DNA of 64,000 nucleotides, taken from contig LBSX01000002.1 of NCBI GenBank assembly GCA_000990355.1, positions 6,000 through 69,999 on the forward strand, in the 5' to 3' direction. Under the pieces are notes generated by a model, which saw only the letters and a list, made by a program, of their open reading frames with translations, did not search any database and was not told the DNA's origin. The translations under genes and the position numbers were made by a program. Source of the DNA: Candidatus Magasanikbacteria bacterium GW2011_GWC2_37_14. Lineage in GTDB: Bacteria > Patescibacteriota > Patescibacteriia > Magasanikbacterales > UBA922. This document shows, piece after piece, positions 9,860 to 63,352 of this stretch. Numbering within the stretch: position 1 is the stretch's first letter; each line of letters starts with the position of its first letter.

Positions 9860-9865
9860 TATAAG

Positions 9866-9937
9866 CTCGGGAGGTGGGGATCGAACCCACGACCATCACG
9901 TTAACAGCGTGCCGCTCTACCGCTGAGCTACTCCCGA
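9866..9937 (-). tRNA. tRNA-Asn (anticodon GTT)
   Basis: Manual cloverleaf: acceptor TCGGGAG/CTCCCGA, D-arm GCTC/GAGC, anticodon loop CTGTTAA, T-arm GTGGG-TTCGATC-CCCAC, discriminator G. CCA is not encoded. Confidence 0.85.
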
Positions 9938-9944
9938 ATATAAA

Positions 9945-10097
9945 ATGTCTGTGTATTCACAGAAACTATGAACACATTAAATACCTTATACTTAAAGTGC
10001 GAAGCGGTACCACTGCCTGCCCGCCAAGCTTGCTGGTGATTGCGCCGGATGGTTGTGGTGTGAACCGAGAGGCGGGGGCTACTCCCGAATATAAATT
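9945..10097. repeat. GC-rich structured island bounded by an 18-19 bp direct repeat that duplicates the tRNA-Asn 5' end
   Basis: gctactcccgaatataaa occurs at 9927-9944 and again at 10078-10095. The roughly 130 bp between them is GC-rich with internal inverted repeats (gcccgcc / ggcgggggc). Confidence 0.4.
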
Positions 10098-16697: not shown

Positions 16698-18512
16698 ATG
16701 CAGATTAGAAATATTGCCATTATTGCCCACGTAGACCACGGTAAAACCAAATTAACCGATGGTTTGTTGCGTTTTACTGGCATGGTTACGGACGAAAGTG
16801 TAAGTATGGATTCTAATGCTTTGGAGCAAGAACGTGGCATTACAATTTATTCCAAAAATACTTCTGTTTTTTATAAAGGAACAAAAATTAATATTGTGGA
16901 CACTCCTGGTCACGCTGATTTTGGCTCCGAAGTAGAACGTGTACTTCGTTCCATTGATTCAGTATTATTGGTTGTTGATGCACAAGAAGGTCCGATGCCT
17001 CAAACAAAATTTGTCTTAAAAAAATCATTAGATTTGGGTTTAAAGCCGATTGTGGTGATTAACAAAATAGATAAAGCCGCCGCTCGACCCGAATGGACTC
17101 ATGATAAGGTTTTGGAATTATTTATGGATTTGGGTGCCAATGATGCACAATTAAATTTTACTACTGTTTATGCCATTGCAAAAAATGGCATTGCCAAAAG
17201 AAATTTAGCCGATGAAAGTAATGATTTAGCACCTTTACTTGATACAATTTTAGAAGTTGTTGAACCAGCCAAGGTAGACACCACATTGCCATTTACTTTT
17301 CAACCTTTTAATTTGGCTTATGATAATTACTTGGGTCGTTTAGGTATTGGCCGTATTTATCAAGGCACTTTAAAAGCTAATGACCGAGTGTTTGATAAAA
17401 AAGTTGACGGTGAAATAATTTCTGGTAGTGTAAATAAAATTTTTACTTTTGAAGGCATGGCTCGCAAAGAGGTAAGTGAAGTGATTGCTGGCGACATTGT
17501 CATGGTTGCCGGTCTTCCCGAAATTTATATTGGTGATACTGTTTGTGCCAACAAAGATCAAGAAACTTTACCAGCGATTAGTGTAGATGAACCAACCATT
17601 TGTCTTAATTTTTTGGTAAATAATTCTCCTTTTGCCGGACGTGAAGGTAAATATGTAACCAGTCGCCAAATTAAAGAACGTTTGGAAAAAGAATTAGAGG
17701 TAAATGTAGGTTTAAAAATTGATTTTTCGGCTACTGACTACTATAAAGTTTATGGTCGTGGTGAATTGCATATTGCAATTTTATTAGAAAATATGCGCCG
17801 CGAAGGTTTTGAAGTACAAGTTTCGCAACCACAGGTAATTATTAAGGAAATTCCTTCGGCAAGCTCAGGACAAGTAATTAAATGTGAACCTTTTGAAGAA
17901 ATTACCGTAGATATTCCCGATAATTGTGTGGGTGGAGTAATTGAAAAATTATCCAAACGTAAAGCGGTAATGACAGAAATGCGTCCTGAAGGTAATCATA
18001 CTCGTTTACTCTTTATTATTCCTACTCGCGGACTCTTGGGTTATCGCAATGAATTTATTGTGGATACTCGTGGTGAAGGAATTTTATGTAGTGAAATGAT
18101 TGGATTTCAACCCTATGTTGGTGAAATAGAAAAACGCGATGTAGGTTCCATGATTTCTGGTGAAACTGGTAAAGTGTTGGCTTATTCATTGGCCAATTTA
18201 CAAGATCGCGGTGTATTGTATGTAGCACCAAATGTAGATGTTTATACTGGACAAGTAATTGGCAATACTGCCAAGGGTCAAGATATGACCGTTAACCCTA
18301 TTAAAGGTAAGCATCTCACCAATATGCGTTCTTCCAATTCAGATATGGCAGTGCAATTAACTCCGCCAATGGATTTATCACTAGAAAGAGCCATGGAAGT
18401 AATGGCTGAAGATGAATTTTTGGAAATTACTCCCAAAAGTATTCGCTTGCGTAAACAATTTTTAACCGAAAATGATCGGATTCGGCAAGAAAGAAAAGAA
18501 GCTAAAGAATAA
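16698..18512 (+). CDS. typA: translational GTPase TypA/BipA
   Basis: G1 [11 protein letters not shown]3 [12 protein letters not shown], and the EF-G-like domain order. Confidence 0.95.
17852..17875 (+). repeat. 24-bp GC-rich in-frame repeat (family C), copy in typA
   Basis: tccttcggcaagctcaggacaagt matches 20168-20191 in nifS at 23 of 24 positions. It encodes PSASSGQV. Confidence 0.6.
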
Positions 18513-18539
18513 ATCGCCAAAACTGGCGATTTTTTTTTA
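18513..18539 (+). terminator. rho-independent terminator after typA
   Basis: atcgcca-aaac-tggcgat followed by T9. Confidence 0.75.
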
Positions 18540-18578
18540 TTTATGCTAAACTGTGCTAGTTATAACTAAATTTATTTT

Positions 18579-19163
18579 ATGTCAAAAGAAATCGTTTTGG
18601 ATATTGAAACCATTGGCGATATTCGTGATTTTAATAGTTTAAAAGTTACTGTTGTTTCTATTTATGAATATGAAACCGATAAATATACTAGTTTTGTAGA
18701 ATCTGAATTAGGAAATTTGTGGCCAATTTTGGAAAAAAGCGAACGGATAATTGGTTACAATAGTGAACATTTTGATTTGCCAATATTAAATAAATATTAT
18801 GCTGGGGATCTTTTAAAATTTCCCCAATTAGATATATTAAAAGTAATCAAAGAAACTAGTGGTTCACGTTTTAAATTAAATGATATTGCTAAAGCTACCT
18901 TGCAAATCGAAAAAAGTGCCGATGGTTTACAAGCCATGAAATGGTGGGAAGAGGGGAAAGTGGATGAAATCAAAAAATATTGTGAGCAAGATGTAAAAGT
19001 TACCAAAGAGATTTATGAATATGGTCGCAAAAATAAAATGTTGTATTTCTTTACTCTCACCGGCGACCTTACACCAATTGCGGTGAATTTTGAGCCAATA
19101 CCACAATCCACAACAAAAAATGGTAGTACCGTCTCCAATATCAATTTAACCCTGCCCTTGTAG
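18579..19163 (+). CDS. DEDD-family 3'-5' exonuclease (RNase H-like fold, YprB-like)
   Basis: Exo I LDIETIG, Exo II YNSEHFDLPIL, Exo III YCEQDV. Confidence 0.55.
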   Translation: MSKEIVLDIETIGDIRDFNSLKVTVVSIYEYETDKYTSFVESELGNLWPILEKSERIIGYNSEHFDLPILNKYYAGDLLKFPQLDILKVIKETSGSRFKLNDIAKATLQIEKSADGLQAMKWWEEGKVDEIKKYCEQDVKVTKEIYEYGRKNKMLYFFTLTGDLTPIAVNFEPIPQSTTKNGSTVSNINLTLPL

Positions 19164-19193
19164 TTGACATCTCATACTTAGATAGTATATAAT
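19164..19193 (+). promoter_or_regulatory. sigma70-like promoter for the Rrf2-nifS-nifU-fdx operon
   Basis: TTGACA (19164-19169), about 18-nt spacer, TATAAT (19188-19193). The spacer contains an ATACT-n5-AGTAT inverted repeat that could be an operator. Confidence 0.45.
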
Positions 19194-19219
19194 GAATTTA
19201 CTTTTATATACTTATTTAT

Positions 19220-19630
19220 ATGTTACAATTCAACAAAGAAGTAGACTATGCTTTGCAACTGCTTTTGGCATTAAAAAGTTTACCCGAAGGCCAGCTTTTG
19301 AGTTTAAGAAATTTTTCTAAAGGTAGTAAAATTTCTTTTTTATTTTTACAGCGTATCGCCTTTAAATTAAAAAATTCAGGAATTGTTAAGTCCGTAAAGG
19401 GGGCGCAAGGGGGTTATTATTTAGCCCAAAAACCACAAAAAATTACTTTTAAGAATGTGGTTGATTCTTTGGAAGGGGAATGTGTGGTAGCCAATTGTTT
19501 GCGAGCAGGTTTTTGTTGTGAAAAACAAAAGACTTGCAAGGTGCACGATGTTTTTTTCAATATCAACACCAAAATTTTGGAATATTTAAGTGCTATAAAT
19601 CTAGGTACAATTGCTAATTATGACAAATAA
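19220..19630 (+). CDS. Rrf2-family transcriptional regulator (IscR-like, Cys-containing)
   Basis: N-terminal Rrf2 helix-turn-helix region and a Cys cluster CLRAGFCCEKQKTCKVH for an Fe-S ligand set. Confidence 0.8.
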   Translation: MLQFNKEVDYALQLLLALKSLPEGQLLSLRNFSKGSKISFLFLQRIAFKLKNSGIVKSVKGAQGGYYLAQKPQKITFKNVVDSLEGECVVANCLRAGFCCEKQKTCKVHDVFFNINTKILEYLSAINLGTIANYDK

Positions 19631-20927
19631 TTTACCTAAAAAACCAAAAACAAAAAAATTAGTATATTTGGATCATGCCGCTACTACATATGTAAGTCAA
19701 GAGGTAGAAAAAGCCACAAAGCCTTTTATAACCAAGATTTTTGGGAACCCCAGTAGTTTGTATGAACTAGGTAGAATTGCTAATGGTGAATTAAATGATT
19801 GCCGACGTAAAGTGGCGGAGATTTTACACGCCCTGCCTGACAATATTATTTTTACGGGTGGTGGTAGTGAATCAGATAACTTGGCTATTTTTGGTGTTTG
19901 TAGAAAAATTGGTAAAGGTCATATTATTGCTACCAGGATAGAACATCACGCAGTGCTTTATCCTTGCCAACAATTAGAAAAAGAAGGTTTTACTGTTACT
20001 TACCTAGAACCAGATTCACAAGGTTTTATTTCACCCAAAAAAGTTTTAGCGGCAATTAAACCAGACACAATTTTGATTTCTATAATGTATGCTAATAATG
20101 AAATTGGTACTGTAGAACCAATTGCTGATATTGGTCGCGAGATTTTAAAATATCGTAAAGCCAACAATCCTTCGGCAGGCTCAGGACAAGTTCAGTATCC
20201 TATTTTTCATACCGATGCTTGCCAAGCCGGTGGAGTGCTGGAATTAGATGTAGAAAAATTACATGTGGACCTAATGACACTTAATGGTAGTAAAATTTAT
20301 GGACCAAAAGGTGTGGGTTTGCTTTACAAACGTCGTGGAGTAAATATTCAACCACTTATTTTTGGTGGTGGTCAAGAAATGAATTTGCGTAGTGGTACTG
20401 AAAATTTAGCTGGCATTGTAGGTTTTACCAAAGCTTTGGAAATTGCTCAAGAAAATCGTCACGAAGAAAATATGCGTTTAGTAGATTTGCGCAATTATTT
20501 TTTTGATCAAATACAAAAGAATATTAAAAATATTAGACTCAATGGTCCCCAACTTCACTCTGATAAAAATCAGAGTTACACTGGGCAAGCTGGTTCTGAA
20601 GTTCTAAACAGATTACCTAACAATCTAAATATTACATTTATTGATGTAGAAGGTGAGGCAATGCTTCTTTATTTAGATGCTTACGGAATTTGTTGTTCTA
20701 CTGGTTCGGCTTGTACTTCAATGTCATTAGAACCTTCACATGTTCTTACCGCTTTAGGTTTGCCCTATGAATACGCTCATGGTAGTTTAAGATTTACTTT
20801 GGGTTATTGTAATACAAAACAAGATATTGATTATGTAATGAGATACTTACCAGCAATTGTAGAAAAATTACGGGAAATGAGTCCGGTGCAGATGGGGAAA
20901 GTTCAACATGCCAAATATAAAAAATGA
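19620..20927 (+). CDS. nifS: cysteine desulfurase (NifS/IscS type)
   Basis: PLP-lysine region GSKIYGPKG and active-site Cys loop CCSTGSAC. The ORF could start 9 nt earlier, at 19611. Confidence 0.9.
   Translation: MTNNLPKKPKTKKLVYLDHAATTYVSQEVEKATKPFITKIFGNPSSLYELGRIANGELNDCRRKVAEILHALPDNIIFTGGGSESDNLAIFGVCRKIGKGHIIATRIEHHAVLYPCQQLEKEGFTVTYLEPDSQGFISPKKVLAAIKPDTILISIMYANNEIGTVEPIADIGREILKYRKANNPSAGSGQVQYPIFHTDACQAGGVLELDVEKLHVDLMTLNGSKIYGPKGVGLLYKRRGVNIQPLIFGGGQEMNLRSGTENLAGIVGFTKALEIAQENRHEENMRLVDLRNYFFDQIQKNIKNIRLNGPQLHSDKNQSYTGQAGSEVLNRLPNNLNITFIDVEGEAMLLYLDAYGICCSTGSACTSMSLEPSHVLTALGLPYEYAHGSLRFTLGYCNTKQDIDYVMRYLPAIVEKLREMSPVQMGKVQHAKYKK
20168..20191 (+). repeat. 24-bp GC-rich in-frame repeat (family C), copy in nifS
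   Basis: tccttcggcaggctcaggacaagt, same reading frame as the typA copy. It encodes PSAGSGQV. Confidence 0.6.
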
Positions 20928-21929: not shown

Positions 21930-22649
21930 ATGGAAAATATTGGAAAACTTTATATTGTTGCCACCCCAATTGGCAATTTAGGCGACATTACTTTACGCGC
22001 TTTGGAAACATTAAAAAGTGTTGATTTTGTTTTGTGTGAAGATACCAGAGTTACCCAAAATTTACTAAATCATTTTGCTATTAAAACAAAAAGTATTTCC
22101 TACCACCAACATAGCGGTGTAGAAAAAATAAGTGAAATTATTAAATTATTAGAGACCGGTAAAAATTTAGCTCTTGTAACCGATGCTGGCACTCCCGGTA
22201 TCTCTGATCCTGGGAATTATTTGATAGCTGAAATTGTCAAAAAATGTCATGCTGAATTTATTTCAGCATCTCAGGGGATCCTGAAACCAGTTCAGGATGA
22301 CAGTATTGTACCAATCCCAGGTGCTTCGGCAGTCATTACTGCTTTATCAATTTCTGGTTTTTCAACAGATAAATTTTTATTTCTGGGTTTTCCGCCACAT
22401 AAAAAGGGTCGCAAGACGTTTTTTGAAGAATTAGCAAAAGTAGAACACACAGTTTGTTTTTATGAATCAAATCATCGAATTAAAAAATGTTTAGGAGAAT
22501 TAGCCGACGTTTTGGAAGAAGATAGACAAATGTGCGTGTGCCGTGAATTAACAAAAAAATTTGAAACTATTTATCGTGGAACAATAAAAGAAATATTAAC
22601 AAAAAATATTTCCGAAAAAGGCGAATTTGTAATAGTAATTAGTAATTAA
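21930..22649 (+). CDS. rsmI: 16S rRNA (cytidine1402-2'-O)-methyltransferase RsmI
   Basis: YIVATPIGNLGDIT...CEDTR tetrapyrrole-methylase-fold signature of RsmI. Carries an in-frame 19-aa insert; see the mobile element at 22245-22302. Confidence 0.9.
   Translation: MENIGKLYIVATPIGNLGDITLRALETLKSVDFVLCEDTRVTQNLLNHFAIKTKSISYHQHSGVEKISEIIKLLETGKNLALVTDAGTPGISDPGNYLIAEIVKKCHAEFISASQGILKPVQDDSIVPIPGASAVITALSISGFSTDKFLFLGFPPHKKGRKTFFEELAKVEHTVCFYESNHRIKKCLGELADVLEEDRQMCVCRELTKKFETIYRGTIKEILTKNISEKGEFVIVISN
22245..22302 (+). mobile_element. MITE-like palindromic element (family A, GTCAT...ATGAC termini), in-frame inside rsmI
   Basis: tGTCATgctgaa-tttat-ttcagcatc...gatcctgaa-accag-ttcaggATGACa: two 8-bp-stem hairpins with inverted termini. 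Same termini as the 34082 and 63252 copies. Confidence 0.6.
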
Positions 22650-26696: not shown

Positions 26697-28638
26697 AATT
26701 CTCTTGGTGGCATCTCTGCTTAGTGTTGCTTTAGTGTTTTCTGGTTGCCAATTTACTGACAATTTTAAAACTTTTTTTGCCAAAAAAGAAGCACCTGTGG
26801 TGGTAATACCTAACGATCCAAACACTAACTCTATCAATGAAGTAGCTGGTGAAAGTACTGAAATGGAAGTAGTAGAAGCTGTTTGGAGTGGTAAAGCAGA
26901 AAAAGTTTCTCTTGAAGAAACTAATACCTTATTAAATAAATTATATCCCAACTATCAAAAAACTGTTGAGTGGGTTAATAACTACAAAAAACTTTGTAGT
27001 AAAAATTTAAAAAATGAAATTTGTTCGCAAGCAGTTTCTCCAGATTCAATGACTAACCCAGAAATAGTTTTGTATAAAGTTGGTAAAACGAAAGTTGGTA
27101 ATTTTGATATTTATTACCTAACAGTACCAATTTTACCAATCATGGAAATGGGAACTCCCCAACAAAGTTGGCTGGCATATTTTGACAGTGTAAATAACAA
27201 AATGGTTGGTTTGCAGGCAAATAAAGAAATGGCCTTCAGTTACCCAACTTATGGAATTGATACTTTACCAAATTACGTAACAGGACCAAACAATTTCAAT
27301 TTAGGTCCAGAATATAAAAATGTGGAAATTTTTTCAGAAAATAAATTTTTAAGTTTACAAACAGAATTTTTAACTTTAGACGAGACTACCATCGAATTAC
27401 CTGGGGGCAATGTAAAGTTGACTCCCCTTGGTTTTTATAAGACAGGCTGGTCTAGTTGGTCAAATATTGAAATGCTGGGTGATTTTGGTTTAGATGATCC
27501 TTTGATTGGAAAAACTTACGAAGATAAAATAAATTCTTCAACTGATTTTATGGATGGTAAAATTTTACCAGGATTAAAATATCAAAATGGTTGTTTTTAT
27601 CGAGTTTTGACAAATGGTTCATTATTTTTTTATAAAGTCCAACCTTATTTCTTTAAACAAACATTGGAATCAATGGCATTGCAAACATACCCAGAAAGTT
27701 TTGTGGCAACAATTGAATGGAAAAATAAAAGTAATGAAAAAGATTTTTACTTTGCTTATGGCGAGTTAGGTGGTTGTGGATCTATTGTTTTTAACTGTAA
27801 AGAAATAGTAAATAATAAACCGTGGTTTAGTGAAAATGACTTGGTAGAAATTGGTAAAACTGCGAGCGCAGAAAAAGTTTATGAATTAAAAAACAAAAAG
27901 GATAATGAGTTCTACAAAGAATTTTTTCAAAATTACGGATCTGTAGTTTATGATAATTATGGAGAGTCTGAAAAAATACCCGAGGCAACTCGTTATGCTA
28001 ACTTTCTAAGTGATCAGCCAGTATTTTTTTGGAAAGATAACTGGGGAAATTGGCGTGTTTATCAAAAAATTAAATATAGGCCAATGGCAGAATGTGGTAA
28101 GCCAGTAATTTATTTATATCCAGAAGAAACTACTGATGTAAGCGTAAAAGTAGCACCAACTGGTGGATTAACGATTACCGAACCAATGTATAATAATGGT
28201 TGGTTGGTAAAAGCCACACCAAATAGTGAATTGTTTAATTATGCTAACCAAACTAATTATCCTTATTTATTTTGGGAAGGTAAAGCTAATGATTTTGTAA
28301 CTCCAGATTATGGCTATGTAATTAAACGTGAACAAGTTGCAATGAAAATGAAGGAAATCCTTGGTAAATTGGGTTTGAACACTAAAGAAACTGCTGATTT
28401 TCTAGAATTTTGGCAACCAAAGTTGGAAGTAAAACCATATGTGTTTGTAACCTTTGTACCACAAAGAGAGTTTGATAAAATGGCACCTCTAACAATTTCA
28501 CCAAAACCGGATAAAGTTATTCGTGTGTTTATGGATTATGAACCATTAGAAAAATTTATTAATGTTCCTGAGCCACAATTTAGCACTCCAATACGCACTG
28601 GGTTTACGGTTGTGGAATGGGGTGGTAGGTTGCACTAA
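26686..28638 (+). CDS. large hypothetical lipoprotein
   Basis: Signal peptide with lipobox VFSGC. No recognisable catalytic motif. Confidence 0.5.
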   Translation: MKNKILLVASLLSVALVFSGCQFTDNFKTFFAKKEAPVVVIPNDPNTNSINEVAGESTEMEVVEAVWSGKAEKVSLEETNTLLNKLYPNYQKTVEWVNNYKKLCSKNLKNEICSQAVSPDSMTNPEIVLYKVGKTKVGNFDIYYLTVPILPIMEMGTPQQSWLAYFDSVNNKMVGLQANKEMAFSYPTYGIDTLPNYVTGPNNFNLGPEYKNVEIFSENKFLSLQTEFLTLDETTIELPGGNVKLTPLGFYKTGWSSWSNIEMLGDFGLDDPLIGKTYEDKINSSTDFMDGKILPGLKYQNGCFYRVLTNGSLFFYKVQPYFFKQTLESMALQTYPESFVATIEWKNKSNEKDFYFAYGELGGCGSIVFNCKEIVNNKPWFSENDLVEIGKTASAEKVYELKNKKDNEFYKEFFQNYGSVVYDNYGESEKIPEATRYANFLSDQPVFFWKDNWGNWRVYQKIKYRPMAECGKPVIYLYPEETTDVSVKVAPTGGLTITEPMYNNGWLVKATPNSELFNYANQTNYPYLFWEGKANDFVTPDYGYVIKREQVAMKMKEILGKLGLNTKETADFLEFWQPKLEVKPYVFVTFVPQREFDKMAPLTISPKPDKVIRVFMDYEPLEKFINVPEPQFSTPIRTGFTVVEWGGRLH

Positions 28639-28640
28639 TT

Positions 28641-29771
28641 ATGATGATTGACACTCACTGTCATATACAATTCAATTCATATAAAGACGATTATGAAGAA
28701 GTAATAAAAAGATGCACTGAAAAGGGTATGATTTTGAATTGTGTGGGTTCACAAATTGATACTAGTAGACGAGCAGTAGAGTATGCGGAAAAGTATGAAA
28801 ATATTTATGCCACCATTGGGCTTCACCCCGTGCATTTGTTTTCCAGTGAAGTAGATGAAGAAGAAACAAAATTTAAAACGCGTGAAGAAAAGTTTGATTA
28901 TGAAGAATATAAAAAATTAGCAGAACACCCCAAAGTGATTGGCATAGGGGAGTGTGGCTTAGAATTATTTCATCTTCCAAAAGATGCTAACAAAGATGAA
29001 ATTTTGGCAAAACAAAAAGAAGGATTTTTGTTACAATACAAATTGGCACAAGAATTAGCCTTGCCAATGGTAATTCATGTACGTGATGCTTATGATGAAA
29101 TGGTAGAGTTTCTAACTGTCATTGCGAGGAGGTCAACAGCCGACGAAGCAATCCCCAGTCAGAATGGGATTGCCACACCTCGTTCGGGCGAGGTTCGCAA
29201 TGACATTTGTGGAGTAGTGCATTGTTACTCTGGTAATTGGGCTCAGGCCTCTAAATTCATTGATTTAGGCCTGTACCTAGGCTTTACTGGGATTCTAACC
29301 TATCCAACAAGAAAAACCAACCCAAAGCCTACAGAAGACCTTGTAGAGGTAGTTAAAAATTGTCCTATAGAGCGAATTTTAATCGAAACAGACGCTCCTT
29401 ATCTAGCACCGCAGAAATATCGTGGACAGCGTTGCGAGCCATGGATGGTAGAAGAAGTTGCTGTAAAAATAGCAGAAATAAAGGGAATAAGTGTAGAAGA
29501 AGTTCGAGAACAAACAGTAAAAAATGCTTTGAAATTGTTTAAAAAATTAGATATTTGGCATTTTCATACTTGTCCCCAAGCAAATCTAAAAATCCCCTTG
29601 ACCAAAGAGGGGTTTTTTAGTAAAATATGTGCGTTCTTCAATAAACAATATTCAAGAAGTATATGGCTCTTTTACCTACTGATTCCAAGGATCGTCAATA
29701 TATGTTACTTGGTTTGCGCATTGCTGGTGATTTTGGTGCTACAATTGCTGTTCCAATTGTTCTTTTTGTAA
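28641..29771 (+). CDS. tatD: TatD-family metal-dependent hydrolase (with a MITE insertion and an unusual C-terminal read-through)
   Basis: HxH (DTHCH), GECGLE, HCYSG and ETDAPYL TatD motifs. There is no in-frame stop until 29771, so the ORF overlaps the atp promoter and atpZ. Confidence 0.8.
   Translation: MMIDTHCHIQFNSYKDDYEEVIKRCTEKGMILNCVGSQIDTSRRAVEYAEKYENIYATIGLHPVHLFSSEVDEEETKFKTREEKFDYEEYKKLAEHPKVIGIGECGLELFHLPKDANKDEILAKQKEGFLLQYKLAQELALPMVIHVRDAYDEMVEFLTVIARRSTADEAIPSQNGIATPRSGEVRNDICGVVHCYSGNWAQASKFIDLGLYLGFTGILTYPTRKTNPKPTEDLVEVVKNCPIERILIETDAPYLAPQKYRGQRCEPWMVEEVAVKIAEIKGISVEEVREQTVKNALKLFKKLDIWHFHTCPQANLKIPLTKEGFFSKICAFFNKQYSRSIWLFYLLIPRIVNICYLVCALLVILVLQLLFQLFFL
29117..29205 (+). 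mobile_element. MITE-like element (family A-related) with 11-bp perfect terminal inverted repeats, in-frame inside tatD
   Basis: tGTCATTGCGA...TCGCAATGACa plus an internal gcaatccc/gggattgc hairpin. Adds about 29 aa between the conserved TatD motifs. Confidence 0.55.
29598..29626 (+). promoter_or_regulatory. sigma70-like promoter for the atp operon (overlapping a hairpin)
   Basis: TTGACC (29598-29603), 17-nt spacer, TAAAAT (29621-29626). The spacer forms a cccct-tgaccaaag-agggg-T6 stem-loop. Confidence 0.5.
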
Positions 29772-32592: not shown

Positions 32593-34080
32593 ATGTCAAC
32601 AAATACTATAGTAAACGAACTAAAAAAACACATTGCCGCTTTTGAAAAAACTGTCCAAGTAGAAGAAATTGGCACAGTAATTGAAGTCGGTGATGGCATT
32701 GCCCGCATGTCTGGCCTAACCAAGTGTCAATATCAAGAAATGTTGGAATTTACTGGTGGGGTATTTGGTGTGGCCTTAAATTTGGAAGAAGAAACTGTAG
32801 GTGCGGTTATTTTGGGTGATTACAAACAAATTAAAGAAGGTGATAGTGTAAAACGCACTGGCCGTATTTTGTCGGTACCAGTTGGTAAAAATGTGATAGG
32901 CAGAGTAGTAAATGCTTTGGGACAACCAATCGATGGAAAGGGCGATATTAAGTCAGACAAATTTTATCCAGTAGAAAAAATTGCTCCCGGCGTAATGACT
33001 CGCGAAGGTGTACACGAACCAGTACAAACTGGTATTAAAGCAATTGATGCCATGATCCCAATTGGGCGTGGACAACGCGAACTTATTATTGGTGATCGTC
33101 AAACTGGTAAAACTGCAATTGCGATTGATGCAATTATTAATCAAAAAGGCCAAGACATGAAATGTATTTATGTGGCGATTGGCCAAAAAGAATCCAAAGT
33201 TGCTAGAATCGTAGCCAAATTACAAGAAGCTGGAGCTATGGAATATACCACTGTCGTGGTAGCTGGTGCTTCGGATCCTGCTTCAATGTCTCTTTTTGCT
33301 CCTTATGCTGGAGTAGCCATGGCTGAATATTTCGCTGATCAAGGTGAAGATGTTTTGATTATTTATGATGATTTAACTAAACAAGCTTGGGCTTATCGTG
33401 AAATTTCCTTACTCCTTCGTCGTCCACCAGGACGTGAAGCTTATCCCGGTGATGTATTTTATTTACATTCTCGTTTACTTGAACGCGCTTGTAAATTAAA
33501 TGAAAAATACGGTGGCGGTTCAATTACTGCATTACCAATTATCGAAACTCAAGCAGGGGATGTAACTGCTTATATTCCTACCAATGTAATTTCAATTACT
33601 GATGGACAAATTTTCTTGGAAACCGATTTATTCTATCGTGGTATTCGTCCAGCTTTAAATGTAGGTATTTCTGTATCTCGTGTAGGTGGTTCTGCACAAA
33701 TCAAGCCAATGAAGAAAGTTGCTGGTAAATTAAAATTAGCCATGGCACAATTTCGTGAATTAGAAGCATTCTCTGCCTTATCATCCGACCTAGATGTCGA
33801 CACCAAGCGCCAGATTGACTTGGGTCAACGTATGACAGAGCTTTTAAAACAGCCACAATATTCACCAATGGCAGTAGAAGACCAAGTGGCGGTAATTTAT
33901 GCAGTATCTAACGAATTCTTTAATAAATTTTCTGTTAAAGAAATCAAAGACACAGAAAAGAAATTTTTGGAATTTTTGCATAAAAGCAAAAAAGCTTTGT
34001 TGGACAAAATTGCCAAAGGTGATTGGGAAGAAGACACAGAAAAAGAATTAAAAGAAGCTTGTTTGGAGTTCGCCAAGTAA
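32593..34080 (+). CDS. atpA: F0F1 ATP synthase subunit alpha
   Basis: Walker A GDRQTGKT and the alpha-type C-terminal domain. Confidence 0.95.
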
Positions 34081-34081
34081 T

Positions 34082-34176
34082 TGTCATGCTGAATTTATTT
34101 CAGCATCTCTTCGATAGATTACTTTTTGCTAAAATAATTAAATTAAGAAAGATCCTGAAACGAGTTCAGGATGACA
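34082..34176 (+). mobile_element. MITE-like element (family A), intergenic atpA-atpG
   Basis: 95 bp: tGTCATgctgaa-tttat-ttcagcatc, a variable core, then gatcctgaa-acgag-ttcaggATGACa. Its right end AGGATGA lies 6 nt before the atpG ATG. Confidence 0.6.
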
Positions 34177-34182
34177 GACAAT

Positions 34183-37194: not shown

Positions 37195-37399
37195 TCCACA
37201 GTTTAAGTGGTCTTGACAGTTTTCATACTAAATTAGTATACTATACTTAGTTTAAGTCACTTTTTAATTATAATTATATGTGTGGTGGATGTTCTTGCTA
37301 AATTAGCCAAAAATATCCCGACTAAGTCGGGATATTTTTTTATTGCCTTTTTTATACTTGGATGCTAGAATAGTGTACATATACAAGCTAAAAGAGAGC

Positions 37400-40384
37400 A
37401 TGAAAGATCTGAATTTAGAACAAAAACAAGCAGTAGAATACACCTCTGGTCCGCTTTTGATTGTCGCCGGAGCTGGTACTGGTAAAACTACAGTAATCAC
37501 CCAAAAGATTACTTTTTTGGTTAAGCAAAATTTGGCCAAACCCGAAGAAATTTTGGCTTTAACTTTTACAGAAAAGGCAGCCGGGGAGATGCAGGAGCGC
37601 GTGGATCAACTATTGGATTTGGGTTATTCAGACATGCAGATTTCAACTTTTCATGCTTTTTGTCAAAAACTTTTAGAATTTCATGGGCTAGACATTGGCT
37701 TGTCAAATCAATTTAAATTATTAACTCCCACTGATGCTTGGCTCTTGGTACGTAAAAATTTAGATAAATTTAATTTGGATTATTATCGACCCCTGGGTAA
37801 TCCTACGCGCCATATCCATGAATTAATTAAACATTTTTCTAAGTGTAAGGATGAATTAATTACGCCAGCAGAATATTTAAAATATGCGGAAGAAGTGAGT
37901 TTGGATGATGATGCCGACCCCACCCCATCCTCCCCTACAAGGGGAGGGGAACGTAAGCGTCTCACTGAAATAGCTAATGCTTATCATACTTATAATCAAC
38001 TTTTGCTGGATAATAATTGTCTGGACTTTGGTGATCTAATTTTTTATGGCCTTAAATTGTTAAAAGAACGGCCAAATATTTTAAAATTATTGCAAAATAA
38101 ATATAAATATATTTTGGTTGACGAGTTTCAAGATGTTAATTATGCACAGTATGAATTGGTAAAATTGTTTACGACTAATGGAAATCAGTTAACAGTTGTG
38201 GGAGACGATGACCAGTCAATTTACGCCTTCCGCGGAGCATCGGTTTCCAATATCTTACGTTTTAAAGATGATTTTCCTAATGCCAAAGAAATTGTTTTAA
38301 CAGAAAATTATCGTTCAGGCCAAGAAATATTAGATTTAGCCTATAAATCAATACAAAATAATAATCCCGATCGTCTAGAGATTAAATTAAATATCAATAA
38401 ACAATTAAAGTCAGTAGTTAGTAGCCTGCCTGCCGGCGAGGCAGGTCTAAAGTCTGAAGTCGAATACAAGCATTTTAATACTTCAACTGAAGAAATTAAT
38501 TTTGTAATTAATAAAATTTGTGAGATTTGTAAAGATGAATCTGTAGTTTTGTCAGATTTTGCAATTTTAATTCGCGCCAATAGTCAGGCCGAACCGTTTA
38601 TTAATGCTTTTGAAAAAGTTGGTCTGCCTTATGAGTATCTGGCTTCGTCTGGATTATATCGCCAGCCATTAATTTTAGATTGTATTAACTTTTTAAAAGT
38701 ATTGGACAACTATCACGAATCCAGTGCTATTTTTCGTTTATTACATTTACCTTTTTTAAAATTTAATCCAGATGATTTACAAAAAATAACCTATTTTTCT
38801 AAGAAAAAAAGCATTTCTTATTATGAAACTCTAAAACGTGGATTGGAAATTAATTTATCAAAAACAGGTATTGAAATAGTCAATAAATTGTTAAATATAA
38901 TAAACAGTGGCACACAAATGGCCAAGGAAAAAAAACCTATAATAATTTTATTAGATTTTTTAGAACAAAGTGGTTATTTTAAATATCTTGCCTTGGAAGA
39001 TGAACAAGGTAATAGAGAAATAATTAAACAAATTAAAGAGCTACGAAGTTTTTTTGAAGAAGTTAAACACTACGAAGAATCAGTGCCTCAAGCACGCGTG
39101 TCAGATTTTTTGGAACATTATAATTATATTTTAGAGTCTGGTGATGAAGGGCAAATGTTTAAAAATCTAGAAGAAACAGAAGCGATAAAAATTTTAACGA
39201 TTCATTCTGCCAAGGGCTTAGAATTTAAATATGTTTTTGTTGTTAACTTGGTGGAAGAACGTTTTCCTAGTCGTAAACGTGGAGAAGCTATTGAATTGCC
39301 TGTATCATTAATTAAAGAAAATCTATCAGAAGTGGATTACCATGTTAATGAAGAAAGACGTTTATTTTATGTGGCCTGTACCAGAGCCAAAGAAAAATTA
39401 TTTTTAACTAGCGCGGATGATTATGGTGGGGTGAGAAAGAAGAAAGTTAGTAGGTTTATTGATGAATTAAATTTAAGTATGGAAGCAAGGCAACAATATA
39501 ACAATGTAACTATTGACACATTGCCACATTGTCACACTGTTGACAAAAAAGATATTAATCAGTCTAAAAGTACTACAATTTTATCTGACACCTTTTCCTA
39601 CTCCCAAATCAATTCATATCTTCGCTGTCCTTATCAGTATAAATTAGCCCATGTATTAAAAATTCCTACCACAGGCAATGCTAGTTTTAGTTTTGGTTCA
39701 ACTATACATAATACTTTACAAAAATTTTATAACCAGGTTATTGAATTAAATAGTATTAAACAAGATTCGTTGTTTGTTCAACATACTACAACTAAACAAG
39801 TTGGAGAAATAAAAGTTCCAACATTGGATAATTTACTAAAATTTTATAAAGATTCTTGGCAAGATGACTGGTATCAAAATAAACAACAACGAGAGGAATT
39901 TTACAAAAAAGGACATAAAATATTGGAAATATTTTATTCTTCAGAGCAAAAAAATGGCTGGACTGTGCCAGTTTTTCTAGAGAGCGGTTTTAAAATTAAA
40001 ATAGGAGATTATTTTATAAATGGACGCATAGATCATATTGATAAATTATCGGCTGGTGCTTTAAAGATTATTGATTATAAAACCGGTAAAGCTAAAGAAA
40101 AAGTAGTTGGCGATGATAAAAATCAACTGCTAATTTATCAAATTGCCGCGGAAATTTTACCTGAATACAAAAATATTGGCCCAGTTAGTGAATTAACTTT
40201 TTATTATTTAGAAGAAAATCTTACAACGTCTTTTGTTGGCGACGATAAAGACAAAACAAAACTACAAGAAAAAATTATCAAAACAATTGGGGAAATAAAC
40301 GATTCTAATTTTGTTGCCACACCCAGTGAACACATTTGTCAGCATTGTGATTTTAGAGACATTTGTCAGTTTAGACAATTATAA
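37400..40384 (+). CDS. UvrD/PcrA-like SF1 helicase fused to a C-terminal PD-(D/E)XK (RecB/Cas4-like) nuclease
   Basis: Motif I AGAGTGKT and motif II DEFQD. C-terminal region with IDYKTGK and a Cys cluster CQHCDF..C. Contains two short GC-palindrome inserts. Confidence 0.85.
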   Translation: MKDLNLEQKQAVEYTSGPLLIVAGAGTGKTTVITQKITFLVKQNLAKPEEILALTFTEKAAGEMQERVDQLLDLGYSDMQISTFHAFCQKLLEFHGLDIGLSNQFKLLTPTDAWLLVRKNLDKFNLDYYRPLGNPTRHIHELIKHFSKCKDELITPAEYLKYAEEVSLDDDADPTPSSPTRGGERKRLTEIANAYHTYNQLLLDNNCLDFGDLIFYGLKLLKERPNILKLLQNKYKYILVDEFQDVNYAQYELVKLFTTNGNQLTVVGDDDQSIYAFRGASVSNILRFKDDFPNAKEIVLTENYRSGQEILDLAYKSIQNNNPDRLEIKLNINKQLKSVVSSLPAGEAGLKSEVEYKHFNTSTEEINFVINKICEICKDESVVLSDFAILIRANSQAEPFINAFEKVGLPYEYLASSGLYRQPLILDCINFLKVLDNYHESSAIFRLLHLPFLKFNPDDLQKITYFSKKKSISYYETLKRGLEINLSKTGIEIVNKLLNIINSGTQMAKEKKPIIILLDFLEQSGYFKYLALEDEQGNREIIKQIKELRSFFEEVKHYEESVPQARVSDFLEHYNYILESGDEGQMFKNLEETEAIKILTIHSAKGLEFKYVFVVNLVEERFPSRKRGEAIELPVSLIKENLSEVDYHVNEERRLFYVACTRAKEKLFLTSADDYGGVRKKKVSRFIDELNLSMEARQQYNNVTIDTLPHCHTVDKKDINQSKSTTILSDTFSYSQINSYLRCPYQYKLAHVLKIPTTGNASFSFGSTIHNTLQKFYNQVIELNSIKQDSLFVQHTTTKQVGEIKVPTLDNLLKFYKDSWQDDWYQNKQQREEFYKKGHKILEIFYSSEQKNGWTVPVFLESGFKIKIGDYFINGRIDHIDKLSAGALKIIDYKTGKAKEKVVGDDKNQLLIYQIAAEILPEYKNIGPVSELTFYYLEENLTTSFVGDDKDKTKLQEKIIKTIGEINDSNFVATPSEHICQHCDFRDICQFRQL
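37913..37950 (+). repeat. GC-rich palindrome (family B), in-frame in the helicase gene
   Basis: gaccccacccc...cctcccctacaaggggagg is near-identical to the module at 1444-1464. Encodes PTPSSPTRGGE. Confidence 0.6.
38421..38450 (+). repeat. GC-rich palindrome (family B), in-frame in the helicase gene
   Basis: gtagcctgcctgccggcgaggcagg is near-identical to 1466-1487. Encodes SLPAGEAGL. Confidence 0.6.
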
Positions 40385-50944: not shown

Positions 50945-52183
50945 ATGCTAGATATTAAATTCATTCGTGAAAATGTGGAATTAATCAAAACTAACTGCGC
51001 TAATCGACATGTAAAAGTTGATATTGAAAAATTAGTAGAATTTGACGACAAAAGACGAGGGATGCTAAAAAGAATTGAAGATTTAAGAGCTAGTAGAAAT
51101 CAAAATTCCAAGCAAAAACCAAGTGAAGAAGAAATTGCTAAAATGAAGATTGTTGGAGAAGGCATAAAAGCCTTGGAAGTGGAAATGCAGACAATTGACG
51201 CTGAATATTTAAATTTGTTAAAACAAATTCCAAATTTATCCCATCCAGAGAGTCCAATTGGCGGTGAAGCAGATTATAAAGTAATTTGTGAAAGTGGTAA
51301 GCCACCTAAATTTGACTTTGTACCCAAAGATCATGAAACCCTAATGACAAGTTTAGATTTAATTGATTTTGAACGAGGAGCTAAAGTGTCGGGTTCTAAG
51401 TTTTATTTCGTAAAAAATGACGCTGTACGGCTCAATTTTGCCCTTTTGAGCTATGGTATGGATATTGTGAATAAATATGGCTACACCCTAATGGAAACCC
51501 CGGATTTGGCCAAAAATGAGATTTTGAGCGGTACTGGTTATAACCCTAGGGGTAATGAAACAGCAATTTATTCTGTCGAAAATACTGACCTAAGTTTAAT
51601 AGCCACTGCCGAAATCACTGTTGGTGGTTATCATGCCAATGAAGTTTTGGATTTGTCTAGTGGACCAAAAAAATATGTTGCCTTATCACATTGTTTTCGT
51701 ACCGAAGCAGGGTCCTATGGCCAGGAATCCAAAGGCCTGTATCGCGTTCATCAATTTACTAAATTAGAAATGTTTGTTTTTTGTAAACCAGAAGAAAGTG
51801 AAAAATATCACGAAGAAATATTAAATATTGAAAAAGAAATTTGTGATGGCTTAAAATTAAATTATCGCGTGATTGATATTCCGACAGGCGATTTGGGCGG
51901 GCCCGCTTATCGCAAATTTGATCTAGAAGCTTGGATGGTGATGAAAGACGGCTATGGTGAAATTACTTCTACTTCCAATTGTACAGATTATCAAGCACGA
52001 CGATTAAATATTAAATACAAAAATGAACAAGGCAATAATGAATATGTTCATACTTTAAATGGTACTGCTGTAGTCTTGAGCCGTTTTCCTCTGTCAATAG
52101 TTGAACAATACCAGCAAGCTGATGGGAGTGTTAAAATTCCTGCAGTGTTGGTAAAATATTTGGGTAAAAAAATTATTAAATAA
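50945..52183 (+). CDS. serS: seryl-tRNA synthetase
   Basis: N-terminal coiled-coil arm and class II motifs (FRTEAGS, GDLGGPAYRKFDLE). Confidence 0.9.
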   Translation: MLDIKFIRENVELIKTNCANRHVKVDIEKLVEFDDKRRGMLKRIEDLRASRNQNSKQKPSEEEIAKMKIVGEGIKALEVEMQTIDAEYLNLLKQIPNLSHPESPIGGEADYKVICESGKPPKFDFVPKDHETLMTSLDLIDFERGAKVSGSKFYFVKNDAVRLNFALLSYGMDIVNKYGYTLMETPDLAKNEILSGTGYNPRGNETAIYSVENTDLSLIATAEITVGGYHANEVLDLSSGPKKYVALSHCFRTEAGSYGQESKGLYRVHQFTKLEMFVFCKPEESEKYHEEILNIEKEICDGLKLNYRVIDIPTGDLGGPAYRKFDLEAWMVMKDGYGEITSTSNCTDYQARRLNIKYKNEQGNNEYVHTLNGTAVVLSRFPLSIVEQYQQADGSVKIPAVLVKYLGKKIIK

Positions 52184-52184
52184 A

Positions 52185-52955
52185 ATGACTAAAAAAACTT
52201 TGATAATTCTACCTGGATGGGGTGGAAACAAAGAAACGTGGAAAAATTTTGCAGAACTTGCGAGCAAAGATTTTGACGTACATATTATTGAATTGCCGTG
52301 TTTTGGCGATGAACCCTGCCCAAAAACAGTTTGGGATATTGAAGATTATGTTGAGTTTGTTAAAAATAAACTTCTTGAGCGTCATTCCCGCGAAGGCGGG
52401 AATCTTAAATTGGTGAAAGATCCCCGTTTTCACGGGGATGACGCAGTGCTATTAGGTCACTCATTTGGTGGACAAGTAGCCACGGTCTTTGCTTCCAAAT
52501 ACCCAGAGATGATTGAAAAACTTATTTTAACAGCACCGGCTGTTTTCCGCCCTAAAAAAACTTTTCGACGAGTAGTTTTCAATATTGGAGCAAAATTTGG
52601 TAAATTAATTTTTAAAATTCCTTGGATAGAAAATGGTTCCCTCTGGGCCGAAAAAATTTATCACCAAGCAATTGGTGCCAAAGATTATCATGATAGTTCG
52701 GGCATTAAACGAGAAATTTTTAAAAATATTATTCGTCAAGACAGGGGAGTGGAAGCTAGTAAAATTACTATACCAACTCTAATTGTTTGGGGTACAATGG
52801 ATGGTTATCTACCAGTTGCTGATGCTAATCAATTGAATAAATTAATAAAAAACTCTAAACTTGAAATAGTTAATGGTGGAAGACATGGATTACACCTACA
52901 AATACCAGAAAAACTTTTATATTTAATAAAATCTTTTCTTGAAAAAAATATATGA
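52185..52955 (+). CDS. alpha/beta hydrolase
   Basis: GHSFGG nucleophile elbow. Contains an in-frame palindromic insert just upstream of it. Confidence 0.7.
   Translation: MTKKTLIILPGWGGNKETWKNFAELASKDFDVHIIELPCFGDEPCPKTVWDIEDYVEFVKNKLLERHSREGGNLKLVKDPRFHGDDAVLLGHSFGGQVATVFASKYPEMIEKLILTAPAVFRPKKTFRRVVFNIGAKFGKLIFKIPWIENGSLWAEKIYHQAIGAKDYHDSSGIKREIFKNIIRQDRGVEASKITIPTLIVWGTMDGYLPVADANQLNKLIKNSKLEIVNGGRHGLHLQIPEKLLYLIKSFLEKNI
52380..52443 (+). mobile_element. MITE-like element (family A-like, GTCAT...ATGAC termini), in-frame in the hydrolase gene
   Basis: cGTCATtcccgc-gaag-gcgggaatc...gatccccg-ttttca-cggggATGACg: two subterminal hairpins. Encodes RHSREGGNLKLVKDPRFHGDD. Confidence 0.55.
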
Positions 52956-61242: not shown

Positions 61243-62070
61243 TTAAATCTTACTTAATAAAATTCCACAAGCTACAGCCACATTAAGTGATTCGGCTTGC
61301 CCTGCCTTCGACCCGAGCTCAGGCCGAGGGTAGCCTGCCGAAGGGCAACCTAGAATAGTATACTTATTATCTAGCATTTTTTCAACTTCTGGTCGTATTC
61401 CGTGCGATTCACTACCAAAAACATAAATATTCATATTTTTCTTATTAACTTTGTCCAACTTATCACCATTCATTACCATGCCATTAAGCACATAACCATT
61501 TTTTTGAAGCTTTGTAAGGTCTTGAACAACATTAGTACTCTCTAAAATATTTAGATGAAAAATAGAACCCATAGTACTCCGCACAGCTTTAGGATTGTAT
61601 AAATCCACGCAATCTTCGGATAATAATATGCTTTTAACACCAAACCAATCTGCAGTGCGAATAATTGTTCCCAAATTTCCTGGGTCTTTAACCCCGTCTA
61701 AACAAATAATTGTCCCGTCAAAATCATTTAAAATTACTTTTGGTTGTTTTATAACAGCCAAAATCCCAGGAAAAGTCTCAGTGGTTTTAAGTTTCTTGGC
61801 TTCTTTTTCGTTACAATATTCAATCAAAATATCATTTTTGGTAGCCAGGTTAATTAAATCTAAAAAATCTGGCTCACTATCCTTTGTTTTTTCAATTACT
61901 AACAAAACAACATTCGCTTGAGCAAGCATTGCTTCTTTTACACCTTTAACACCTTCAACAATAAATTCACCCTGTGCTTGGCGAAATTTCTTTTGCTCTA
62001 TCTTATTTAAATGTTTTAGACTTTTTTGTGAAAGCATAAATAATAAATAAAAACTACTGTCGCCTTCCAA
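61243..62070 (-). CDS. SpoU/TrmH-family RNA 2'-O-methyltransferase (RlmB-like)
   Basis: Motifs ICLDGVKDPGNLGTIIRTA and ESLNVAVACGILL. Has a C-terminal in-frame GC-rich insert. Confidence 0.8.
   Translation of the reverse strand: MEGDSSFYLLFMLSQKSLKHLNKIEQKKFRQAQGEFIVEGVKGVKEAMLAQANVVLLVIEKTKDSEPDFLDLINLATKNDILIEYCNEKEAKKLKTTETFPGILAVIKQPKVILNDFDGTIICLDGVKDPGNLGTIIRTADWFGVKSILLSEDCVDLYNPKAVRSTMGSIFHLNILESTNVVQDLTKLQKNGYVLNGMVMNGDKLDKVNKKNMNIYVFGSESHGIRPEVEKMLDNKYTILGCPSAGYPRPELGSKAGQAESLNVAVACGILLSKI
61293..61350. repeat. GC-rich palindromic insert inside the spoU-like gene (related to families B and C)
   Basis: ttgccctgccttcg...gagctcaggccgagggtagcctgccgaagggcaa. Shares gtagcctgcc with family B and ccttcg...gctcagg with family C. 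Encodes about 12 extra aa (GYPRPELGSKAGQA) before the ESLNV motif. Confidence 0.55.
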
Positions 62071-62888
62071 ATCCTTTTAATTCTTTGTGGTTGTTTGATT
62101 AAGCGATACAACCATTCTAACCCAATTTGACGTAAAAATAAAGGGGCGCGTTTAACAGTTCCGGATATATAATCAAAAGCTCCACCCACACCCATGGCAA
62201 TTCTGACACTTGGTAAGTCTTTTAAATTTTCATTAATCCACTTTTCTTGTTTACCATGACCAAAGGCGACAAAAAGGATGTCTGGGGCCGACATAATAAT
62301 CTGTTGAACAATTTCGTCATTTTCTTCTTTATCATAACTAATCTTGTAATCTTTTAATCTTTTAATCTTCATCCCCTTGTTTAACCCAACGATCTGTAAA
62401 TTTTTAAATTTTTTTCTTAATTCGTCACCTGTCTTTCTTATTACCTCTTCGCTTCCCGACCCTAATAAATATACACTTTTATTCGTTTTCTCTGCGAAAG
62501 CACAAATATCATGCATTAAGTCTATACCAGGGTAACGCGTTATCCTCCTCTTTCTAAGAGGAGGTGGCCGAAGGCCGGTAGAGTTTGCCGGAGTTTCATC
62601 AGCTTCGGCAACTCCCCCCGCCTGCCTTGACGGCATGTCGGGCAGGCCTACCCCCTCTTGGAAAGAGTGGGGCAACCACATTGCTAGCTTTAAACCCGTT
62701 CCATCACAAACATTCAAATCTCCACTATTTAAAACAGTTTTAAAATAGTTGTCTTTTTGCGCGTCAACCAGTATTTCTGGATTAGGGGTAAAAATTTTAT
62801 GCGATTTGTTTGAATTCAAAAATTCAGTAACTTTTTCAAGTACTTCTGTTATTGATAAATTGTCTATTCTTACATTAAGAACGTTCAC
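62016..62888 (-). CDS. WecB/TagA/CpsF-family glycosyltransferase (GT26)
   Basis: N-terminal pattern including DG.G. Carries an insert of about 40 aa in the middle. Confidence 0.65.
   Translation of the reverse strand: MNVLNVRIDNLSITEVLEKVTEFLNSNKSHKIFTPNPEILVDAQKDNYFKTVLNSGDLNVCDGTGLKLAMWLPHSFQEGVGLPDMPSRQAGGVAEADETPANSTGLRPPPLRKRRITRYPGIDLMHDICAFAEKTNKSVYLLGSGSEEVIRKTGDELRKKFKNLQIVGLNKGMKIKRLKDYKISYDKEENDEIVQQIIMSAPDILFVAFGHGKQEKWINENLKDLPSVRIAMGVGGAFDYISGTVKRAPLFLRQIGLEWLYRLIKQPQRIKRIWKATVVFIYYLCFHKKV
62543..62690. repeat. cluster of four GC-rich hairpin modules, in-frame inside the tagA-like gene
   Basis: cctcctc-tttctaa-gaggagg; ggccgaaggcc; gcctgcc-ttgacggcatgtcg-ggcaggc; cccctctt-ggaa-agagtgggg. 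Encodes GVGLPDMPSRQAGGVAEADETPANSTGLRPPPLRKRRI. Confidence 0.55.
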
Positions 62889-63207: not shown

Positions 63208-63251
63208 GCTGGTATAATATTAGCACTCAAAGGTAGTGAGTGATAACTCAC

Positions 63252-63346
63252 TGTCATGCTGAACTTGTTTCAGCATCTATCCTTGTAAACACATTTCTAA
63301 AAAATTATAACTTTATGAAAGATCCTGAAATAAATTCAGGATGACA
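63252..63346 (+). mobile_element. MITE-like element (family A), immediately upstream of clpB
   Basis: 95 bp, with the same termini and hairpin modules as 34082-34176. Its right end AGGATGACA lies 6 nt before the clpB ATG. Confidence 0.6.
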
Positions 63347-63352
63347 ACCATT

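Follow-up and report, generated by a model that had tools for sequence, protein, structure and literature searches.

The window, which is the whole 64,000-nucleotide stretch of DNA analysed here, derives from a Candidatus Magasanikbacteria genome (Patescibacteria, CPR) and has a G+C content of 32.7%. Two genes on its plus strand are of interest. One is typA/bipA (ORF 16698-18512, 604 aa), assigned by its homologues and by alignment with E. coli BipA, and the other encodes a NifS/IscS-like class-V cysteine desulfurase (nifS-like; ORF 19611-20927), assigned by its homologues. The desulfurase shows 100% identity to a protein of Candidatus Magasanikbacteria bacterium GW2011_GWC2_37_14. Each gene carries a short segment which, at 58-62% G+C, stands out from the surrounding DNA. 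The typA segment, TCCTTCGGCAAGCTCAGGACAAGT, lies at 17852-17875 (+) and is read as PSASSGQV, and the nifS segment, TCCTTCGGCAGGCTCAGGACAAGT, lies at 20168-20191 (+) and is read as PSAGSGQV. An earlier sequence-only reading of this DNA had reported that the two segments agree at 23 of 24 positions, and both direct reading and a search of the window bore this out, with the consensus TCCTTCGGCA(A/G)GCTCAGGACAAGT translated in the same frame to PSA(S/G)SGQV. When the window was searched with up to three mismatches, exactly these two sites were recovered, and 100 dinucleotide-preserving shuffles of the window gave 0 matches at that threshold.

A compound relative of the segments was located at 61295-61344 on the minus strand, within the ORF of a TrmH/SpoU-family methyltransferase (61243-62070, minus strand; hereafter spoU). 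On the coding (minus) strand this element reads CCTTCGGCAGGCT-ACCCTCGGCCTGAGCTCGGGTCGAAGG-CAGGGCAAGC, encoding PSAG-YPRPELGSKA-GQA. Its first 13 bases are those of the nifS copy, its last 10 bases match the 3′ end of the unit, and the 27-base piece in the middle is an inverted unit-like sequence. The plus-strand CCTTCG...GCTCAGG at 61305-61323, from which a kinship between the 24-base segments and the spoU element had been proposed, is this inner inverted piece, and the kinship itself was upheld. As judged from its sequence, the spoU element is a derived compound form in which one unit is broken by an inverted unit-like piece.

Other in-frame GC-rich insertions, belonging to different repeat families, were seen in the window in rsmI, in the ORFs at 28629-29768 and 52155-52952, in a WecG/TagA-like gene and, twice, in the ORF at 37307-40381. 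The nifS gene has two GC-rich in-frame insertions (the unit and a second one), typA has one, and spoU is also hit. The insertion process, whatever its nature, is thus not confined to the 24-base unit. The window contains one tRNA (Asn); it bears no relation to the unit, and a tRNA origin of the unit was rejected.

Filled and empty alleles at the TypA, NifS and SpoU sites

We aligned TypA and NifS with their relatives, and the alignments showed that, as suggested earlier, the loop of the homologues is shorter at both sites. At the TypA site, 116 of 120 aligned relatives have a plain x-G-x turn, mostly DG with V next. The relative nearest to the window TypA, P0001 (on L125; 96.7% amino acid and 90% nucleotide identity over the gene), is without the unit and reads KEI-NGE-KCEP, compared with 16 residues including the insert in the window TypA. 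At the DNA level, AATGGCGAA of P0001 corresponds to the 27 bases CCTTCGGCAAGCTCAGGACAAGTAATT at 17853-17879, a net gain of 18 bases. The window typA gene is intact, and its changes relative to this empty relative are mostly synonymous.

The same TypA turn is filled in a second lineage, represented by P0009 and P0032, where the insert reads PSAGSGQAP; P0021, with 99.2% protein identity, has DG-V and no insert. In the DNA of the second filled lineage, GAT GGT GTC has become GAC CCTTCGGCAGGCTCAGGGCAGGCTCCA ATC, which adds 24 bases net. The two filled alleles differ within the unit at three positions (GGACAAG versus GGGCAGG type) and in length (27 versus 30 bases), and their flanking DNA is as diverged as the remaining gene. 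We therefore read the P0009/P0032 copy as an independent event. Shared sites of this kind could also be filled patches that were moved among Magasanikbacteria by homologous recombination, in which case few of them would be true insertions. Patescibacteria probably take up DNA, in both filled TypA alleles the last codon ahead of the conserved Lys is Ile, and the distribution of filled sites among relatives is patchy. However, we regard this alternative as highly unlikely: the differences in unit sequence and length speak against a common patch, the sequences next to the insert resemble each other no better than the gene as a whole does, and Ile at that position is also found in empty alleles. 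Moreover, patch transfer cannot account for the unit in unrelated genes (typA, nifS, spoU, cysS, gatB, alaS and others). A second TypA turn, located after NTSxFY and reading KG in the window protein, is occupied by PSASSGQVP in P0056, by PSISSGRVP in P0025 and by a longer cassette form in P0060. In DNA, 30 bases stand there in place of AAAGGCGTA, which lengthens the gene by 21 bases net.

At the NifS site, relatives read KYRKANN-(S/T)-x-YP.FHTDACQ, compared with NN-PSAGSGQV-QYP in the window protein. The nearest NifS relative (L131/P0122, 82% nucleotide identity) is without the unit, and its TCTGTA corresponds to 27 bases at 20169-20195 of the window, a net gain of 21. Five other lineages have short inserts at this site that share SA plus Q or G, including SAQGKQH, SAQVKH, SAGSAQG and SAQAKK, and P0198 has a long PSA...GSGQA form. 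From their peptides, the short inserts probably derive from the 24-base repeat family. The SpoU site is empty in L132, which reads GGA AAT GGT CAA GCA GAG. It carries a short unit, RPSASSGQA, in a different lineage (L133/P0247), and is also occupied in P0271 and P0244. The net gain at this site is 15 bases, and the native GGT CAA GCA (Gly-Gln-Ala) coincides with the 3′ end of the unit, GGA CAA GC, so that only the 5′ 15 bases are new. This site gives the clearest hint of microhomology anchoring.

Five filled/empty comparisons were thus available, with net changes of +18, +24, +21, +21 and +15 bases. The net length change was a multiple of three in every event, and 3-9 target bases were lost per event, usually those of an x-Gly-x turn; with 5-18% DNA divergence between the filled and empty alleles in these pairs, part of the apparent replacement and some junction differences could be later changes. 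None of the five comparisons showed a target-site duplication; target bases were lost instead. Likewise, no general duplication was detected when the 128 copies listed were examined for lengths of 2-4 bases at all offsets. A marginal signal of 2-base direct repeats flanking the unit was seen (13 observed versus 8 expected), and one GATC-flanked subfamily, described below, is an exception to the absence of duplication. The 5′ end of the unit, CCTTCGGC, and its 3′ end, GGACAAG, are not complementary, so the unit has no terminal inverted repeats. When the 24-mer and both window sites with their flanks were folded as DNA, z values ranged from -0.55 to +0.66 against shuffles, and folding of four empty target sites gave no convincing hairpin, the nearest being a weak 6-bp A/T stem at the second TypA site. 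We also tried a single insertion rule, with a Gly codon or a GAT/GT microhomology as the anchor. It fitted cleanly at one of the five sites (SpoU) and was rejected; since the other four misfit simple anchoring, we claim no insertion rule. Taken together, these allele comparisons showed, at the level of sequence, that the insertions are recent and polymorphic and that independent lineages have been hit at the same turns, with the host genes left intact. This recurrence could partly reflect sites that tolerate insertion rather than targeting.

The unit across phyla, reading frames and hairpin loops

The unit has the core CCTTCGGCA(A/G)GCTCAGGACAAG with a pyrimidine before it. We identified exact copies of the 22-base core CCTTCGGCARGCTCAGGACAAG in at least 120 stretches of a species-representative genome collection, in which about 0.1 would be expected by chance (our own arithmetic). 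The matches listed come from Chloroflexota, Patescibacteria, Planctomycetota, Acidobacteriota, Bacteroidota, Nitrospirota, Actinomycetota, Desulfobacterota and others, and the 22-mer was also found in 4 viral contigs. The flanks of the 22-mer are unrelated among the matches listed. A pyrimidine directly precedes the core in 97% of the copies listed, and in low-GC genomes the copies listed have (G/A)AT before the core and mostly T after it. Perfect tandem arrays repeat every 24 bases in L017 (three units) and L032 (two units), and family variants of the form CCTTCG(G/A)CA(A/G)GCTCAGG(A/G)CA(A/G)G lie close by in many loci. The tandems and the exact, widespread copies indicate that the 24-mer is one unit of a widespread family. 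It had been proposed to be probably a minimal or decayed member of the family of the larger spoU element. As worded, that proposal was not supported, given the letter-perfect 24-mer in at least 120 genome stretches and the 24-base tandems; the 24-mer is the canonical unit and no decayed form of the spoU element.

No Rfam 15 family overlapped the unit at the gathering threshold in the window and nine carrier loci, or at a permissive E-value on 17700-20400. In the literature, the peptide readings of the unit were not found, its DNA strings matched unrelated primers only, and searches by topic returned only background on Rickettsia palindromic elements (RPEs) and MITEs.

We then considered how the unit is read. 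In genomes with less than 45% G+C, 24 of the 37 copies listed are intragenic. Using ORFs of at least 150 codons, 21 of 24 copies listed from these genomes lie in the sense orientation and in the PSA.SGQ frame. The unit can be read through in five of its six frames, and we estimate the binomial probability of this bias against 1/5 at about 1e-12. A Pfam scan of ten low-GC hosts with the PSA.SGQ frame identified nine conserved enzymes, namely a TrxR-like protein, GT1, trigger factor, SNase, CysRS, AlaRS, an M20 peptidase, GatB and a GHMP kinase; the tenth host, from L056, matched no Pfam family. The rare frames are LVLSLPKD, in a presumed ligase and a presumed membrane protein (L014 and L034), and LRQAQDK, in a presumed PolX (L103). 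We infer that the frame bias comes from selection, PSASSGQ being the only small and polar reading, from anchoring at glycine codons, or from both.

The position of the unit in protein structures was then assessed. Alignments to PDB entries placed the unit at the turn EIDG|RKQEP of E. coli BipA (5a9v) and at the turns YADGK of SNase, KPGE of CysRS and VGDE of TrxR. In the AlphaFold model of the window TypA, residues 387-392 are predicted as coil, forming a hairpin loop between strands 383-386 and 393-406, in a model with a mean pLDDT of 68 and values of 71-80 across the pair of ten-residue blocks covering the insert. On the best reading of these placements, the unit lengthens a surface loop as Pro-Ser-Ala-Ser/Gly-Ser-Gly-Gln, and the fold tolerates it.

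The shared frame in both window genes and in those 21 of 24 low-GC intragenic copies is what would be expected if PSA(S/G)SGQV were a convergent or functional protein motif. Nevertheless, that explanation can be regarded as effectively refuted. The codons are identical across unrelated genes and phyla, even in this AT-rich genome; the identical 22-mer also appears outside coding sequence and in other frames, including in other phyla; and close orthologues are without the segment, as are the 116 of 120 TypA relatives. The claim that the segments are a repeat at the DNA level, not a shared protein motif, is therefore well founded, and the additional copies together with the residues that orthologues do not conserve speak clearly against convergent conservation of protein. 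An assembly artefact fares no better. The NifS protein with its insert was found on 6 contigs from independent sources and the SpoU protein on 2, and the unit is present in long-read, chromosome-level assemblies and in one isolate, Dokdonella soli.

In GC-rich genomes, the unit occurs in every frame and lies for the most part outside convincing genes. Of 126 copies listed, 20 occupy the loop of a hairpin whose stem is at least 6 bp long and particular to the host, where about 3 would be expected from permuted flanks; some of these copies are co-amplified, so that about 14 were counted as independent. The hairpin copies adjoin the 5′ arm, at an offset of 0-2 except for one at 4, and leave 1-8 loop bases on the 3′ side. 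In L064, L076 and L097, the unit plus CGCCA was apparently inserted at the GATC centre of a perfect palindrome, a different one in each locus. This subfamily suggests a preference for single-stranded loops or for palindrome centres.

A unit that sits in the loops of hairpins whose stems differ and are nonetheless paired, as in these three loci, could also be a selected nucleic-acid signal, for example a protein or RNA binding site or a translation pause at a domain boundary. Its extreme conservation across phyla and its intact state in a 33% G+C genome (22/22 and 21/22) would agree with selection. We consider such a role quite unlikely, because the unit is present or absent between near-identical strains that show no other change, because older copies apparently decay at the protein level (e.g. 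PSISSGRVP), and because the host genes are unrelated and have no common pathway. In addition, the unit has no Rfam match and no intrinsic structure, and the encoded peptide explains the frame bias more simply.

Mode of spread and comparison with known repeats

Based on the above results, we propose that the two segments in the window are copies of a discrete, GC-rich, non-palindromic interspersed repeat of about 24 bases, which spreads at the DNA level and is kept in proteins as in-frame loop extensions. We assign this explanation a probability of roughly 70%. The unit would propagate at the DNA level across many bacterial phyla. In a streamlined, AT-rich genome with little non-coding DNA, the surviving copies would be those lying in frame in surface turns of proteins, precisely because there is little non-coding DNA to receive others. 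The effect on the proteins is probably neutral or nearly so, which would make the unit selfish or stowaway DNA. One point against this explanation is that the plasmids of cultured organisms (7.3 Gb) gave 3 weak partial matches only and that the unit was not found in phages of cultured organisms (2.3 Gb); this near-absence leaves the spread across phyla unexplained.

As to how the unit moves, classical transposition is disfavoured by the sequences at hand, which have no duplication, no inverted ends and variable junctions. The unit might still be part of a classical transposable element, or one isolated end of it (a MITE, an IS terminal inverted repeat or a REP mobilised by a RAYT/IS200-type transposase), with a dedicated transposase, encoded at another genomic locus or by a phage, to move it. 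It is discrete and sharply bounded, and 22-24 bases is a length typical of IS terminal repeats. Some genomes, such as L040 and L043, hold inverted pairs of units that form hairpins. Hairpin loops are the targets of some IS elements (IS1397 and some IS110-family elements), and copies of the unit are enriched in such loops; GATC stands on both sides of the unit in the palindromes of L064, L076 and L097. On the other hand, no general target-site duplication accompanies the unit, which has neither inverted termini nor a fold. The net gain varies, with target bases lost in the five comparisons, and head-to-head and tail-to-tail pairs both occur at spacings that are not constant. Two perfect inverted copies in L052 enclose glmS and a nuclease with no transposase; a composite transposon at that locus was rejected since only housekeeping genes lie between the copies. 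Altogether, an origin as a transposon end appears unlikely.

The interspersed repeat proposed here would instead be copied without the cut-and-paste of a classical transposase. Candidate routes include microhomology-anchored template switching, short-patch illegitimate recombination and a trans-acting activity that prefers single-stranded hairpin loops. Neither an enzyme that mobilises the unit nor a donor copy was found; with low confidence, we favour microhomology-anchored copying or the trans-acting, loop-preferring activity. A more far-reaching proposal, which is possible and in our view rather doubtful, is that an undescribed process unlike transposition writes a 24-base cassette into at least 10 phyla, prefers hairpin loops and glycine-turn codons, and repeatedly makes surface loops in essential proteins of Patescibacteria. 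A trans-acting enzyme might be responsible, or a side reaction of replication or repair.

If our reading holds, a tiny repeat common to distant phyla remodels essential, conserved proteins of the CPR, among them translation GTPases, tRNA synthetases and Fe-S cluster enzymes. It would then be a concrete source of lineage-specific protein loops and a marker of very recent strain divergence, and it would pose the puzzle of how 24 bases that are identical across phyla are copied without the hallmarks of transposition. In practice, such segments inflate apparent protein divergence, and in GC-rich genomes they give rise to spurious ORFs reading LRQAQDK, FGKLRTS or VLSLPKD.

We finally compared the unit with known systems. 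It resembles REP/BIME sequences and MITEs as a short, GC-rich, high-copy interspersed repeat, and in GC-rich genomes it often lies near hairpins and other repeats of this type. However, REPs are palindromic, extragenic and species-specific, whereas the unit is non-palindromic and, in the window, intragenic; MITEs have terminal inverted repeats and target-site duplications, and the unit has neither. The GC clusters of yeast mitochondria, which are palindromic, and the byp elements, which are skipped by the ribosome, are likewise short, GC-rich mobile segments in a very AT-rich genome, some of them in coding regions. In contrast to these, the unit is open in frame, and nothing suggests that it is bypassed.

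Among known phenomena, the RPEs appear to be the closest analogue. They are palindromic elements of about 100-150 bp that are confined to Rickettsia (Ogata et al. 2000, as summarised in review PMC10969869). Both RPEs and the unit are found in frame in many unrelated essential genes of a small, AT-rich genome, both add a translated peptide that the fold tolerates, and both differ in presence and absence between relatives. The unit was found in frame and absent from orthologues in typA, nifS and spoU of the window and in the genes for TrxR, CysRS, AlaRS, GatB, trigger factor, SNase and others elsewhere. The analogy breaks down in size, palindromy and host range. The unit has 24 bases with net gains of 15-24, is without palindrome or fold, and is common letter for letter to many phyla; its host in the window is not Rickettsia, and host and description set it apart from the RPE families. 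Finally, an RPE adds a domain-like segment to its protein, whereas the unit described here replaces a tight turn.

Insertions and GC-rich segments in and beside genes

The nifS-like gene, which also hosts the second copy of the 24-base unit, carries a second insertion at 20574-20597, reading SYTGQAGS. Comparison of filled and empty alleles showed that this segment is part of a 39-base gain with respect to L131, the relative with the nearest allele that lacks the 24-base unit. Among NifS relatives, the neighbouring columns read GYGGQAS, GYAGQAN or DCAGQARS. The second insertion and the 24-base unit have the ending GGNCAAGC (G-Q-A) in common.

Another insertion, of about 120 bases and up to 75% G+C, was found at 62553-62674 in the minus-strand ORF 62016-62888, which was called WecG/TagA-like from the neighbour annotation in L132 (a relative with an empty spoU site) and L133 (a different lineage with a short 24-base-type unit at that site). 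It is in frame, reads LPHSFQEGVGLPDMPSRQAGGVAEADETPANSTGLRPPPLRKR, and includes the 5′ module CCTTCGGC together with a CCTGCC...GGCAGG palindrome. Two other genes each contain a further type of GC-rich repeat in frame, at 29122-29204 (ORF 28629-29768) and 52374-52446 (ORF 52155-52952), with the readings RRSTADEAIPSQNGIATPRSGEVRND and ERHSREGGNL...DPRFHGDD; we take both repeats to resemble ones that are widespread in other phyla too.

A GC-rich stretch of 97 bases (9996-10092, up to 75% G+C) is not within a long ORF and directly adjoins tRNA-Asn (9865-9937, minus strand), the sole tRNA gene of the window. This stretch had no match in Rfam or ARAGORN.

Palindromic repeats

A second repeat family in the window is built of two short palindromes, TGTCATGCTGAATTTATTTCAGCATCT ... 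GATCCTGAAACCAGTTCAGGATGACAG. One copy (22242-22303) lies inside the rsmI-like ORF 21930-22649, where it is in frame and reads CHAEFISASQGILKPVQDD, and the copies at 34079-34177 and 63249-63347 are not within a long ORF. The palindromes CCTCCCCTnnnAGGGGAGG and GCCTGCCTGCCGGnnGGCAGG occur together at 1440-1500, not within a long ORF, and also occur in frame in ORF 37307-40381, one of each at 37902-37965 and 38414-38456. There they are spaced about 450 bases apart, with the readings PTPSSPTRGGE and SSLPAGEAGL.

The 24-base unit and its neighbours in other genomes

L017 (53-122), a stretch from a genome with 39% G+C that is labelled 'uncultured Gammaproteobacteria', carries three perfect tandem 24-base units, read as (PSASSGQG)x3, close to an ORF's end. 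The unit is present in several such low-GC MAGs labelled 'Gammaproteobacteria', and their taxonomic labels may warrant checking. In L133, whose spoU gene holds the short unit, the next gene (1327-1683) matches 23S_rRNA_IVP / bAvd, a type of accessory protein of diversity-generating retroelements.
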